Positions 25,794 through 29,941 of a DNA stretch of 64,000 nucleotides are shown here, one piece after another. The stretch is from positions 32,001 to 96,000 of the forward strand of contig JBCCHT010000005.1 in the NCBI GenBank assembly GCA_039028615.1. Reading direction: 5' to 3'. Origin of the DNA: Myxococcota bacterium. Lineage in GTDB: Bacteria; Myxococcota_A; Polyangia; Nannocystales; Nannocystaceae. The number at the start of each line of letters is the position of its first letter. Position 1 is the stretch's first letter. A program made the translations under genes and the position numbers. Below the pieces are notes generated by a model. The model did not search any database. It was not told where the DNA came from and saw only the letters and a list, made by a program, of their open reading frames with translations.

Positions 25794-28031
25794 TCACAGC
25801 TCGTGGATCTCGGTCGTCAACAGGGCATTCGGCGTGCTCACCCGTTGCTCCGCGCTCCAGGTATTGGTGCCATGGCCCCCGTCGCGCTTGGCCTTCTCGA
25901 GCGCGGAGACGGCATGAGATAGCAAGTTGGCGACGTTTCGAGTCTCCTCGGCCAGCACCGACAGACCCACGCTCAGTGTGACCTGGACGGGTCCGACTCG
26001 GGTGATGAGAGGCATCATGGTGAGGCGTTCGATGAGGCGACCCGCAACCAGGTTCGCCGCCTCGAGGTTGGTCTCGGGCAACAGGAACACGAACTCGTCG
26101 CCGTGGTACTTGCCCACGAGGTCGAACTGGCGAATGTCGGCGACGATGCGCTCCTGGAGCTGGGCGAGGATCTCGTCGGCGACGGTCTCGTCATAGCGCA
26201 TGCTGATCTGGTCGAATTGGTCGATCCCGAGGACCATGCAGGTCATGGGGCGACGATAACGATATGAACGCCGGACTTCGTCTTCGGCCAGCAGAAGGAA
26301 CTGTGCCCGGTTGTACAGCTCGGGGCGCTTGCCGCCCTTGACCATTGCCGCCACCTCTTCCCGAAGCTGCATGCGCTCGCGCTCGGCGAAGAACTCGCGT
26401 TGCTGAAGCTTGTAGCGCTGCCGCTGCGCGGCCACGGTGATGATGATGGTGCTGAGCAGGAAGAACTGATTGGACAGGATCGCACTGGGATCGCGGACCT
26501 CGATGAATCCGAACACCAGCGGGGACATATAAAACCCGTAGATCAACCCGTTGAGGGCGAGCGCCCGCCAGACCGACCACAGGAACATGATGCCGATGGA
26601 CAGCACCAACAAGCTGAGGCCGGCGTAGTACTCGGACTCGAGCCCTCCCTCGAGCCAGACGATCGCAGCGAGCCCGAAGCCAGCCGTCAGGTTCACGGTG
26701 AAGGACAGGACGTCGACATGGCGTTCCACCCAGCGAGGTCGAACGCGGCACAGCACGTGAATCGACCCCGCGTAGGCACAGATCACCAGGCGCAGCAGGA
26801 GCGCGAGCACGATGTACTCGGGTACGAAGAACCAGTCGAGCAGCCAAAACGACAGCATGAGCGCGCTGCCCAAGCCGGTCTCGAGGCGCAGCATCTCCGT
26901 GTTGCGAGCGTCGACCTGGGCCTGGAAATCTTGGAAGCTACGGAGCAGGGCATCCATGCTGGGGAAGCGTTCCCCCGCGTTGCGAGACAGCCCGCGCATG
27001 ACCACCCGATGAAGCCACCGCGGCACGACGGCATCCGCCGGAGGCGGCAGCGGATCGTCGTTGATGATCGCCATGGCGAGTCGGTCGTAGTTGCGCCCGG
27101 GGAAGGGACGGCATCCGTAGAGCGCCTCGTATAGCGCCACGCAGAAACCGAACTGGTCGCTGAGCGCGTCGGCGGGAAAGCCCTGGTGTTGCTCGGGCGA
27201 CATGTACGCGGGCGTGCCCAGGATGATCCCGGTCCTGGTCAGGCTGCGTTCTTCCTCCCCGTCGCCCACGAGGTCCTCACGGAACTCGGCCGCGGGCTCC
27301 TCCAGATCGGCGTCGCCATCACCGTGTCGGCGGGCGAGTCCAAAGTCGAGCACCTTCACTCGCCGATCCTTGCCCACGACCACGTTGTCGGGCTTGAAGT
27401 CACGGTGCACGATACCGGCCCGATGCGCCGCGGCGAGACCCCGTCCGGCTTGCCGAAAGATGTCCAGCACCTCACGCCATGAGCGTGGCGCCGCCTTCAG
27501 CCAGCGACGCAAGGTCATGCCCTGGATGTACTCCATCGCCACGAAGACCCGACCTCGATACTGACCGACTTCGTGGACCTGCACGACGTTGGGGTGCGAC
27601 AGCCGGGCCATGGCCCGAGCCTCTCGAAGCATGCGTTCGTGGGCTTGATTGGCCTGGTTGCCCCGAGCATGCAGCAGCTTGATCGCGACCTTGCGCTCGA
27701 GCTCCTCGTCCAGCGCTGCATACACGACGCCCATGCCCCCCTCGGCAATGCGGTGGAGCACCGTGAAGCGACCGATCCGCTCACGTGGCCTCAGCTCACC
27801 CGATACGACCACGTCGTGGTCGGGATCGACGTTGGTACGCACCGGTCCTTCCCCGTCTCGCGCTTCCGCCCGTGCCTCGCCGTGCTCGTCGATCGGCCGT
27901 CGAGCGCGGGCGGAACCGTCCGGGGGAGTCAGCTTTGCGGACGCCGAGTCGCGACCTGGCTGACCCGGACTCGCGGACTTGTCGTCGGTATCGCTCACGC
28001 GATTCGTCCCGAGTGTCTCATCGGCGACCAT
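25794..28031 (-). CDS. Ser/Thr kinase - 6TM sensor - degenerate GGDEF fusion
   Basis: Kinase motifs AEGGMG, VAIK, HRDFKPDN, DFG, GTPAYMSPE. Six hydrophobic helices include YYAGLSL. C-terminal RQFD-LVGKY-HGDEF and TLSVG. Confidence 0.88.
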   Translation of the reverse strand: MVADETLGTNRVSDTDDKSASPGQPGRDSASAKLTPPDGSARARRPIDEHGEARAEARDGEGPVRTNVDPDHDVVVSGELRPRERIGRFTVLHRIAEGGMGVVYAALDEELERKVAIKLLHARGNQANQAHERMLREARAMARLSHPNVVQVHEVGQYRGRVFVAMEYIQGMTLRRWLKAAPRSWREVLDIFRQAGRGLAAAHRAGIVHRDFKPDNVVVGKDRRVKVLDFGLARRHGDGDADLEEPAAEFREDLVGDGEEERSLTRTGIILGTPAYMSPEQHQGFPADALSDQFGFCVALYEALYGCRPFPGRNYDRLAMAIINDDPLPPPADAVVPRWLHRVVMRGLSRNAGERFPSMDALLRSFQDFQAQVDARNTEMLRLETGLGSALMLSFWLLDWFFVPEYIVLALLLRLVICAYAGSIHVLCRVRPRWVERHVDVLSFTVNLTAGFGLAAIVWLEGGLESEYYAGLSLLVLSIGIMFLWSVWRALALNGLIYGFYMSPLVFGFIEVRDPSAILSNQFFLLSTIIITVAAQRQRYKLQQREFFAERERMQLREEVAAMVKGGKRPELYNRAQFLLLAEDEVRRSYRYRRPMTCMVLGIDQFDQISMRYDETVADEILAQLQERIVADIRQFDLVGKYHGDEFVFLLPETNLEAANLVAGRLIERLTMMPLITRVGPVQVTLSVGLSVLAEETRNVANLLSHAVSALEKAKRDGGHGTNTWSAEQRVSTPNALLTTEIHEL

Positions 28032-28166
28032 CCAGAGACAGTGCGACGTGATGACGGGTCCTCGCGCCTCGTGAACACTCGCTTCACACTTCGGTTCGAT
28101 CGCTACCGTCGTTTACATCGACGAGCTCTTGGTATGCCGGGATATTGCAAATTCAACCTCCAACCG

Positions 28167-28197
28167 CGCCTACGCGGCAGCGCGTGCTGCGTAGGCG
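28167..28197. promoter_or_regulatory. 13-bp near-perfect inverted repeat in the divergent promoter region
   Basis: CGCCTACGCGGCA-N5-TGCTGCGTAGGCG, one mismatch. Confidence 0.4.
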
Positions 28198-28435
28198 ACA
28201 GGCCTCCAGCGATTGGGCTCGAGTGAGAAAGCCTCCGACGAAATCCGGACTCCCTCCGGAAGGGTCGCGAGGACCTACTCGCACCAGGTGTTCGACGCGT
28301 GTTGCACAACGGTCACCTGATGTCGTTGGACTCAGTTGAATATCCTACATCGCGGGCTACCGTTCCCAACGGCTCGCCGAGCGTCGACCGGGGGAGGTCC
28401 AATCGCACGGCAGGCAGCCAAAGGGAAACGGGACA

Positions 28436-29941
28436 ATGGTCTTGGCGATCAAGCGAGAGAAATCCGTAGGACATCGGGGCGCAGAACATACGGGCCTTCA
28501 AGGCGCGAGCCATGCGTTTCGGTTCCGACCATCGCGTCTCGATGCGCGGAGCATGGCCTCGCCGCTGTCGTGCGAGCTCGTGCGCGACGGCCACGTCTAC
28601 GGGCCCATGCGCGTCCTCGACGTCTCGCCCAACGGGCTGGGCGTCGAGCTCGACGAGCCCGTGGTGTTTCCGCTGGGCACGGTGATCGATGAGGTCCGCC
28701 TGCTCCAGGGCGGATCGGTTGCTGCCAGCGAGCGCGCCGTAGTCGTGAACCTGGTCAAAGGACCCCCCTCGCGGCTCGGGCTGCGCCTGGTCTCGGGTCT
28801 GTTCGATCTCGGGGCGCTCCAGCTCCGGGACGTTGCGTCGACCACTTCGATGCAGGCGTTCATCGCCGATCAGCGCACCGAACGAGAGCTGCTACCCGCC
28901 ACTTGGCGAGCCGCCGTGGCCGATCTCGCCCAGCTCCTCAAGCGAACGCGAGACTTCTTCGACCAGATCGAGGCCAACCATTCGCGGCCTCCTGGTGCTC
29001 GAAACGAGACCCAGCTCTTCGCGGAGTTGTTCCTCGTGTGGGGGGCCGAGTACCACGCTCAGCTGCGTCGATTGGATGCGATGACCACCGCGCTGTCCGA
29101 GGAGGCGAAGCAATGCGGGCTCGAATACGCCGCGCACTTGCTGCTGCCCCACGTGCACTGCTGCCCCATTCATCGCCGCGCATACGACAAGCCGCAGGGC
29201 TATGCGGGGGACTTCGAACTCATGCGCTTGTTCATGACTTCGGAGATCGAGGGCGAGACGCTCTACGCCAGGTTCCTGCACTACTGTGGCCAGCGATACC
29301 CGACCGCGCGCACTGTGATCGCGCGGGAGAAGACCATGCGAAGCGCCGTGCGCGAGCGCCTGAGCACGGGCCGGCCTGTTCGCATTCTGTCCGTCGCTTG
29401 CGGTCCGGCCCTCGAACTGCACAACGCGCTGCGCGAGATCACCGAGGCCGGTCAAAAGGTCGAGCTGTTCTTGCTCGATCAAGACGACGACGCCCTCGCC
29501 CATGCCCACGAAGGGGTGCGTCAGGTCCTGGCCGAGCGTGGTGATGCGCTACGAGGGGTGCAGATCGACGCCGTGCATTTCTCGGTCATGCAGCTGCTAC
29601 GGCCTCGCGACGAAGCGGAGGCCGCGGTGGCCCGCGAGTGGCTGTCGGACATGGACCTCATCTACTCGGCGGGGCTGTTCGACTACATGCCGCGCACCAT
29701 CGCGCGCGGCCTGGTAAAGTGCCTGTACGACATGCTCCGCTCCGGCGGCGACCTCTTCCTCGGCAACCTCCGCCGAGACCCGGCCAGCGCCTGGATGATG
29801 GAGCACGCCACCGCGTGGCACCTCATCTACCGCGAGCCCGACGAGATGATGGCGCTGGCGGACTGGGTCGATGCCGACGAGGTTGGACTCGTTTTCGACG
29901 AGACCGAAGGCTGCATGTTCCTGCAGGTCGGCAAGCGCTGA
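28436..29941 (+). CDS. PilZ-like domain + PhcB-like SAM methyltransferase
   Basis: RLDAR and DVSPNG match PilZ RxxxR and DxSxxG. RAYDKPQGYAGDFELM, ILSVACGPALE, DLIYSAGLFDYM, LFLGN, WHLIYR. Confidence 0.78.
   Translation: MVLAIKREKSVGHRGAEHTGLQGASHAFRFRPSRLDARSMASPLSCELVRDGHVYGPMRVLDVSPNGLGVELDEPVVFPLGTVIDEVRLLQGGSVAASERAVVVNLVKGPPSRLGLRLVSGLFDLGALQLRDVASTTSMQAFIADQRTERELLPATWRAAVADLAQLLKRTRDFFDQIEANHSRPPGARNETQLFAELFLVWGAEYHAQLRRLDAMTTALSEEAKQCGLEYAAHLLLPHVHCCPIHRRAYDKPQGYAGDFELMRLFMTSEIEGETLYARFLHYCGQRYPTARTVIAREKTMRSAVRERLSTGRPVRILSVACGPALELHNALREITEAGQKVELFLLDQDDDALAHAHEGVRQVLAERGDALRGVQIDAVHFSVMQLLRPRDEAEAAVAREWLSDMDLIYSAGLFDYMPRTIARGLVKCLYDMLRSGGDLFLGNLRRDPASAWMMEHATAWHLIYREPDEMMALADWVDADEVGLVFDETEGCMFLQVGKR

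Follow-up and report, generated by a model that had tools for sequence, protein, structure and literature searches.

The stretch of DNA analysed here (the window, 64,000 nucleotides of contig JBCCHT010000005.1 from a Nannocystaceae genome of the Myxococcota) contains two divergent genes, encoding a methyltransferase of the PhcB family and a membrane protein that combines a Hanks Ser/Thr kinase with a six-helix sensor of the PhcS type. The latter is the only PhcS-like protein of the genome, and it adjoins the only motif-intact PhcB-like gene. In Ralstonia, PhcB is an S-adenosylmethionine (SAM) dependent methyltransferase producing 3-hydroxy fatty acid methyl esters, and these are sensed by the membrane histidine kinase PhcS. 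On balance, we take the two genes to be a Phc-type pair, in which a synthase of the PhcB family would produce an ester and a membrane receptor would sense it through the PhcS-type domain, with the Hanks kinase as the output. This reading draws on the homology of the two proteins to PhcB and PhcS, the structural match of the enzyme to 3OCJ, the linkage of the two families, single-chain fusions, the occurrence of only kinase-fused sensors in the genus, the ranking of the receptor domains by conservation, and a twin promoter-like element.

Both open reading frames (ORFs) of the pair, proposed in an earlier note on this DNA, are present on opposite strands, 25794-28031 (-, 745 aa) and 28436-29941 (+, 501 aa). 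They are separated by 404 bp, close to the 400 bp given there, or by 437 bp if the receptor starts at GTG 27998. This GTG (734 aa) is probably the true start, since the element TGAGACACT precedes the equivalent GTG by 11-14 nt in all seven aligned receptors.

25794..27998, minus strand: receptor-like kinase of 734 aa if translated from the probable GTG, or 745 aa from the ATG at 28031; a Hanks Ser/Thr kinase is followed by a six-helix sensor of the PhcS type, a coiled coil and a degenerate GGDEF domain (HGDEF) with an RxxD I-site
28436..29941, plus strand: class I SAM-dependent methyltransferase of the PhcB family (501 aa), composed of a PilZ-like barrel, a helical domain and a Rossmann methyltransferase domain; predicted fatty-acid methyl ester synthase

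The methyltransferase

The reference PhcB and PhcS proteins are those of Ralstonia chuxiongensis locus L110, reached through a Paraburkholderia plasmid locus (methyltransferase, kinase and two regulators) and 80 loci of the Burkholderiales type. Genes 1, 2 and 4 of L110 carry PhcB Arg22, PhcS Leu161 and PhcQ Arg154, respectively, which are named in the available text of PMC6989110, and PhcS His230, named in that of PMC11960443, is also present; the identity of the reference is thereby checked. The L110 kinase is 74% identical to the named PhcS of R. pseudosolanacearum. The phcBS-like loci L038-L068, from about 30 genomes of the Paraburkholderia group, are 86-92% identical to the plasmid copy of Paraburkholderia graminis.

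The enzyme is homologous to the R. chuxiongensis PhcB orthologue (24% identity over 428 aa, E = 4e-30). The motifs KPxGYAGD, xxxCGP, YxAGLFDY and WxLxYR are common to both, and in the enzyme all four were located: KPQGYAGD at residue 252, SVACGP at 319, YSAGLFDY at 410 and WHLIYR at 461. Thus the likeness to PhcB, which the earlier note had proposed from KPxGYAGD, holds at the level of homology. Many homologues of the enzyme are annotated as "3-hydroxypalmitic acid methyl ester biosynthesis protein". However, the product may differ from that of PhcB, because the identity is only 24%.

A Pfam scan of the enzyme yields only weak methyltransferase and PilZ matches, the latter at residues 34-117 (E = 0.029) and below the cut-off. 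In the predicted structure (predicted local distance difference test, pLDDT, 92) a beta-barrel at the N-terminus precedes a helical domain and a Rossmann fold, the latter with matches to class I methyltransferases; in this model the SAM-binding Rossmann fold is intact. The top PDB match of the model is 3OCJ (Foldseek E = 6e-12). The same structure is first by VIA-align, with Z 20.7, root mean square deviation (rmsd) 3.1 and 251 aligned residues within positions 156-501, followed by a match with Z 19.1. According to the available text of PMC5426589, 3OCJ is an orthologue of the Bordetella fatty-acid methyltransferase FmtB (BP2936) with a probable palmitate in its cavity. A single-sequence search of solved structures with the enzyme had a best E of 0.32, or 0.076 with the catalytic part alone.

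At the level of sequence profiles the best PDB match is the chemotaxis methyltransferase CheR (5FTW, E = 5e-8), and CheR Pfam matches occur in 58 of 76 family members at E 0.1. One possibility is therefore that the enzyme methylates receptor glutamates under the control of cyclic di-GMP (c-di-GMP), acting through the PilZ-like domain, in the manner of MapZ-CheR1 of Pseudomonas. This is very improbable: the CheR match is limited to the SAM-binding core, a fatty-acid methyltransferase ranks first by structure while CheR is not among the matches listed, and the full-length similarity is to PhcB.

The barrel (residues about 29-120) contains R31xxR34 and D62xSxxG67. The (D/N)xSxxG motif is conserved in the family. 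PilZ Pfam matches were found in 12 of 76 members at E 0.1 (best E = 2.5e-7), and a profile of the barrel retrieves stand-alone PilZ-like ORFs of the same genome (best E = 0.0015). The canonical PilZ motif is RxxxR plus (D/N)xSxxG, whereas the conserved arginines of the barrel form RxxR; among the near members 21 of 26 have R34, as do 33 of 50 of the far ones, and most of the others have a gap there. The profile-profile similarity of the barrel to the N-terminus of PhcB is weak (probability 28%), though the pairwise alignment with PhcB extends through the barrel. Motifs of the PilZ type were found in most full-length family members inspected and were absent from the five Burkholderiales PhcB proteins checked. 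Of the PilZ-PhcB-like synthase proposed earlier, the PhcB homology and a PilZ-like barrel remain; the fusion as a peculiarity of this locus is rejected, as the motifs are general in the full-length members inspected.

A degenerate second copy of the methyltransferase (L001:9535-11040, G000:C57, also in L007, L025 and L026) has lost KPxGYAGD and the glycine motif of the SAM site and has kept the PilZ-type motifs. In four of the six genus genomes it lies directly behind a Ser/Thr kinase gene, and it is possibly a pseudo-enzyme, a c-di-GMP- or lipid-binding partner of the adjoining kinase.

The putative receptor

The anatomy of the receptor is as proposed: a Hanks kinase, six transmembrane (TM) helices with YYAGLSL at residue 468, and a GGDEF-like domain are all present. 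Pfam assigns Pkinase to residues 90-325 (E = 4e-37) and GGDEF to 571-719 (E = 6e-26). The six helices between them are seen both by hydropathy and in the AlphaFold model (mean pLDDT 69, moderate confidence). As their number is even, both soluble domains would be cytoplasmic. In the model the last kinase helix continues into TM1, and TM6 continues into a coiled coil.

26922..27776, minus strand: Hanks kinase domain, residues about 86-370 (745-aa frame), with VAIK, alpha-C Glu, HRDFKPDN, DFG and activation-segment Thr265/267/273
26397..26909, minus strand: six-helix PhcS-type (Pfam MASE8-like) membrane sensor; D399, R414 and G471 invariant
25872..26321, minus strand: degenerate GGDEF domain; metal Asp replaced by Gly, GGDEF by HGDEF, substrate Lys/Asn/Arg lost; I-site R634/D637/R665 kept

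Conservation was assessed in 20 full-architecture clusters, the query included; two rows lacking GGDEF and one lacking the kinase were left out. The VAIK Lys, alpha-C Glu, HRD, DFG, (A/S)PE and the Arg of subdomain XI are invariant in all 20, and by these positions the kinase motifs are intact. A search with the whole receptor model was filled by kinase and GGDEF matches; the kinase matches M. tuberculosis PknB (Z 23.2, rmsd 5.2, 245 aligned), and the GGDEF domain matches DgcB (Z 23.6, rmsd 1.6, 158 aligned).

The membrane region is 24% identical over 184 aa to the L110 PhcS and 27% identical (E = 3e-7) to the named PhcS of R. pseudosolanacearum, and it matches PhcS by profile-profile comparison with a probability of 97% (E = 7e-11). 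Thus the likeness of this region to PhcS, earlier suggested from YYAGL, stands. D399, R414 and G471 are found in every one of 57 sensors; the profile by which these sensors were selected includes the three residues. For the Pfam family MASE8 (PF20968), precomputed matches exist on PhcS entries and on 17 of the 19 relatives of full length; the query receptor had no match to it in the older Pfam copy that was scanned. A profile of the membrane domain had no match at E 10 among solved structures, and NCBIfam has no model for the region. The receptor is not a PhcS protein itself: it has no HisKA/HATPase domains and contains Pkinase and GGDEF instead.

The GGDEF site was read by comparison with the intact cyclase P0144, with residue roles that we take from PleD. 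None of the 20 clusters has an intact cyclase site: the metal Asp is Gly in all, the first Gly is His in 19 and Arg in one, and the Arg is Gly in all. An active diguanylate cyclase is rejected on the loss of these and the substrate residues, and the domain is predicted to be catalytically dead; thus it could only bind c-di-GMP, not make it. The I-site RxxD, five residues before the GGDEF motif, is kept (R634 in 18 of 20, D637 and R665 in 20 of 20). Degenerate GGDEF domains with an RxxD I-site and PilZ proteins are known types of c-di-GMP effectors. Gating of both partners by c-di-GMP, as suggested, would act through the kept I-site and the PilZ-like barrel, the latter with the non-canonical RxxR spacing.

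Retention of the I-site after loss of the active site could also mean that the receptor is mainly a c-di-GMP-gated kinase, whose six helices now only anchor it in the membrane. However, mean identity is 71% in the kinase, 66% in the membrane domain and 55% in GGDEF; thus the membrane domain is better conserved than GGDEF, and it retains the polar intramembrane residues of PhcS. Moreover, two kinase-sensor proteins (L152, L158) are entirely devoid of GGDEF. We consider an anchor role improbable.

Uniqueness and linkage

Two profiles, one built from 79 PhcS sensors and one from 79 PhcB proteins, were run against every stop-to-stop ORF of 100 aa or more in the 12.27-Mb genome (65,112 ORFs). The best match of the PhcS profile is the receptor (E = 3.5e-9; next 0.83). 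The best match of the PhcB profile is the enzyme (E = 2.8e-37), followed by the degenerate paralogue (3.3e-6) and then by a match at 0.6. As both profiles single out two adjacent genes, the pairing exceeds chance.

In a phylum sample of 401 genomes the enzyme was found in 112 and the sensor in 151. Among the 81 strongest enzyme matches outside the query genome, a sensor lies within 8 kb in at least 70 and within 3.5 kb in at least 69; both counts are lower bounds (37 weak sensor rows were missing from the list, and some of the listed weak rows were not entered), and related genomes are not independent. Among 73 genomes of the family, the enzyme was found in 21 and the sensor in 29. In the genus, five of six genomes hold both an orthologous enzyme (at least 63% identity) and the kinase receptor, and all seven sensor matches in these five are kinase fusions; the sixth genome (72% complete) has the degenerate paralogue only. 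A metagenome scan found only three loci, none with the enzyme in the flank.

The kinase-sensor form is linked to the enzyme at three loci, divergently in the query, convergently and adjacently in G005, and convergently with three genes between in G004. A conserved divergent arrangement is thus rejected.

The intergenic region and neighbouring genes

Three candidate elements were found between the genes.

28335..28361, plus strand: promoter-like element GTTGAAT-N16-TACC facing the methyltransferase; clear in three and weaker in two of five orthologue upstream regions
28131..28157, minus strand: second copy of GTTGAAT-N16-TACC facing the receptor; the two form a 27-nt inverted repeat (74%)
28012..28020, minus strand: conserved TGAGACACT element, promoter-like, 13 nt upstream of the likely GTG start; present in 7 of 7 aligned receptor upstream regions

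The pattern GTTGAAT-N16-TACC, defined after inspection of the data, is present at two places in the genome, each copy facing one of the two genes; together the copies form the top inverted repeat. Seven other spacer lengths gave two matches in total. The twin element hints at co-regulation at the query locus only. A sigma-70 scan found no consensus promoter, and a search for RNA listed none.

A fatty acid hydroxylase gene (window 23793-24503, minus strand), two genes from the receptor, is tempting as a supplier of the substrate. A lipoprotein-like ORF (24518-25651, plus strand) converges on the receptor and has a weak match to MIDAS adhesins (E = 4e-5). An operon of the phcBSRQ style, with a histidine kinase and PhcR/PhcQ receivers, was not found; the flanks contain the lipoprotein-like ORF, the hydroxylase and a glutathione S-transferase (GST). 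Neither these three genes nor three more neighbours were found in 47 related loci, and therefore they are not counted as parts of the system.

Other combinations of sensor and synthase

In the fetched loci the sensor is combined with histidine kinases, intact GGEEF cyclases (five operons) and adenylate cyclases (five loci with single-chain fusions). In the operons (L029, L159-L162) a PilZ-like methyltransferase is followed by a sensor-diguanylate cyclase with intact GGEEF; behind the latter, L159 and L160 have a large kinase as a separate gene. Judged by their domains, such operons may form a natural positive or negative feedback loop.

The single-chain fusions (L148:5713-8667, L149, L182, L183, L184) are open frames of 965-1011 aa containing a PhcS-type sensor, an adenylate/guanylate cyclase, a cyclic nucleoside monophosphate (cNMP) binding domain and a PhcB-type methyltransferase; the KPxGY motif is missing from the methyltransferase of L183 and L184. 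Stand-alone proteins of a cNMP-binding domain and a PhcB-type methyltransferase, where the former replaces the PilZ-like barrel, were found in L166:3414-4982, L184:2063-3685 and L185:1863-3845.

The fusions fit a local feedback. This allows for a circuit internal to the cell rather than quorum sensing, in which the sensor would detect a free (hydroxy) fatty acid of its own membrane that the enzyme depletes through methylation; c-di-GMP would control this adaptation or feedback. The nearest fold that has been characterised, FmtB, uses free fatty acids, and no signalling role is shown for it in the available text of PMC5426589. On the other hand, in the one system that has been studied the product of PhcB is a diffusible quorum signal (available text of PMC11298618), and the enzyme has the catalytic motifs of PhcB. 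We regard an internal circuit as unlikely.

Sensor-histidine kinases, some with a receiver, and with no methyltransferase match nearby (L132-L145) are widespread in the family; in two genera every genome has a sensor match (11 of 11 and 7 of 7). They are candidate solo receptors. In three of the five genus genomes, genes for an ECF (extracytoplasmic function) sigma-like protein and for a kinase with tetratricopeptide repeats lie beside the orthologous methyltransferase (L021:3735-7164, L023:11064-14795, L024:9334-12929). This adjacency may be chance, because the query genome has 397 kinase and 144 ECF-like ORFs.

Proposed history of the pair

Trees (LG+G4) were built from subsets of the 51 enzyme and 57 sensor rows collected; names were given to the groups once an initial FastTree tree had been inspected, and there were long-branch warnings. 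The kinase-fused sensors are sister to the sensor-diguanylate cyclases of the family (support 93/90). The enzyme groups with copies located beside histidine-kinase sensors, divergently in three of five cases. Constraining the enzyme to group with the enzymes of the cyclase operons was rejected by the approximately unbiased (AU) test (p = 6.5e-85, 29 rows), as was grouping of the sensor with those histidine kinases (p = 0.0074, 35 rows). Since the trees reject shared descent of the partners, they were most likely re-assorted from different ancestral pairs. The ancestor of the receptor would have been a sensor-diguanylate cyclase that gained the N-terminal kinase and lost its cyclase activity. 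It would then have become the sole PhcS-type partner of an enzyme lineage that elsewhere stands beside a histidine kinase. In each tree the three genomes with linkage fall into one sub-branch, and thus the linkage may be a single event.

The different ancestry of the partners and the single linked sub-branch favour a solo receptor with an incidental neighbour. In that case the kinase-sensor would hear esters or lipids of other cells, the methyltransferase would serve some other purpose, and their adjacency would be one inherited rearrangement. It is further favoured by the absence of the enzyme from the vicinity of 11 of 14 kinase-sensor loci and by the abundance in the family of sensor-histidine kinases with no enzyme match nearby. 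However, the two genes are the only motif-intact members of their families in 12.3 Mb and they are adjacent, both occur together in five of six genus genomes, and the twin promoter-like element faces both of them. We consider an incidental neighbourhood rather unlikely, though it is the strongest of the competitors.

Proposed mechanism

In the Phc-type pair that we prefer, the enzyme would use SAM to methylate a (hydroxy) fatty acid at its carboxyl, yielding a diffusible fatty-acid methyl ester. The ester would enter the membrane and bind among the helices near D399/R414/S466/Y469. The helix joining the kinase C-lobe to TM1 and the coiled coil after TM6 may then re-set the dimer, so that the kinases would trans-autophosphorylate on the activation Thr and subsequently phosphorylate a target protein. 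The cell would obtain c-di-GMP from its other cyclases: 11 GGDEF ORFs were counted in the genome, and seven of them have a plain GG(D/E)EF match. This c-di-GMP may tune the enzyme through the PilZ-like barrel and the receptor through the I-site; the predicted-dead GGDEF domain may now serve as a brake that binds c-di-GMP or as a dimer module.

Several observations weigh against this interpretation. The linkage of synthase and receptor, for which a survey had been proposed, holds for the two families; for the kinase-sensor form it is seen in only three of 14 loci (four of the other 11 have short or one-sided flanks). Where it is seen, the genes have two different orientations. The receptor is present in G062 (80% complete) with no enzyme match. 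The receptor-side copy of the twin element was not found upstream of 11 other receptors. A match of ligand and sensor is not guaranteed, because the trees reject descent as a pair. With 397 kinase ORFs in the genome, kinase fusions would be easy to acquire. The identity to PhcB is low, and the RxxR motif of the barrel is non-canonical for PilZ. The available text of PMC5426589 reports methyl fatty acids detected with FmtB in vivo and activity not detected in vitro. Even for Ralstonia, the role of PhcS in signal perception is put no more strongly than "thought to perceive", and the phenotypes are not abolished when PhcS alone is deleted, according to the available text of PMC13532016.

Of the rewired Phc-type pair with a Ser/Thr phosphorylation output that was originally suggested, the two homologies, the intact kinase motifs and the general linkage stand, and a constant neighbourhood of the kinase form does not. 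Nor is it a new kind of quorum-sensing module; instead it is a variant of the modular and widespread Phc-type pair.

Relation to known systems

The locus resembles phcBSRQ in having a homologous methyltransferase with the same motifs and a homologous six-helix sensor encoded by adjacent genes. It differs in the absence of histidine kinase and receiver genes, the output being an N-terminal Hanks kinase; in the degenerate GGDEF domain after the sensor; in the divergent rather than operonic arrangement; and in the PilZ-type motifs of the enzyme, which the five Burkholderiales PhcB proteins lack. Judging from the sequences, the system would work like Phc yet is not phcBSRQ, having neither histidine kinase nor receivers.

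FmtB, represented by 3OCJ, ranks first by structure; the match spans residues 156-501 and takes in the helical substrate domain, and a probable palmitate lies in the cavity of 3OCJ (available text of PMC5426589). However, the identity is 20%, the aligned range contains no PilZ-like domain, and FmtB has no shown signalling role. Proteins with MASE8 have the membrane domain that Pfam assigns to relatives of the receptor and to PhcS; the query itself did not reach the MASE8 model in the Pfam copy scanned, and its kinase is placed N-terminally of the sensor. The known degenerate GGDEF and PilZ effectors also have a broken site with a kept I-site and DxSxxG, respectively. Here the GGDEF domain is joined to a Hanks kinase and the PilZ-like domain to a small-molecule methyltransferase, the latter domain has RxxR instead of RxxxR, and binding is a prediction. 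The AI-2 (autoinducer-2) receptors with dCache_1 are similar in that a domain sensing an autoinducer is predicted on Ser/Thr kinases, cyclases and histidine kinases; their extracytoplasmic sensor and their signal are unrelated, and pairing with a synthase is not described in the available text (PMC7584622).

Literature searches found no report of PhcB in myxobacteria, of PhcB with methanotroph homologues, or of PhcS with GGDEF in Myxococcota, although subscription papers and supplements might list such architectures. Nothing relevant was found on PhcB with PilZ, judged by title or the opening of the abstract, or on myxobacterial quorum signals of the methyl-ester type. MASE8 has a passing mention in a preprint among the literature searched.

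Phc signalling has so far been studied in Ralstonia and Cupriavidus, and the binding of the ligand by PhcS is described as presumed in the available text of PMC13532016. A PhcS-type domain on a Hanks kinase offers autophosphorylation as a simple read-out and thus a direct test of binding of fatty-acid esters by the domain. A bolder, doubtful version of the Phc-type reading is that of a myxobacterial lipid-ester quorum system leading from a PhcB-type synthase to a receptor Ser/Thr kinase, with both ends gated by c-di-GMP, the synthase through its PilZ-like barrel and the receptor through its dead GGDEF domain, built by a swap of partners between two different ancestral Phc pairs and working like a eukaryotic receptor kinase. 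If it were true, myxobacteria would have a lipid quorum signal with a receptor kinase, the synthase/sensor pair would stand as a module connected to four kinds of output (histidine kinase, diguanylate cyclase, adenylate cyclase and Ser/Thr kinase), and second-messenger domains (PilZ-like or cNMP) would sit on the synthase.

The close named homologues of the pair are from Paraliomyxa miuraensis, Nannocystis pusilla and metagenome-assembled genomes of Myxococcales. P. miuraensis is a named organism with close relatives of both proteins (P0007 and P0126), both encoded on a 322,008-base contig.

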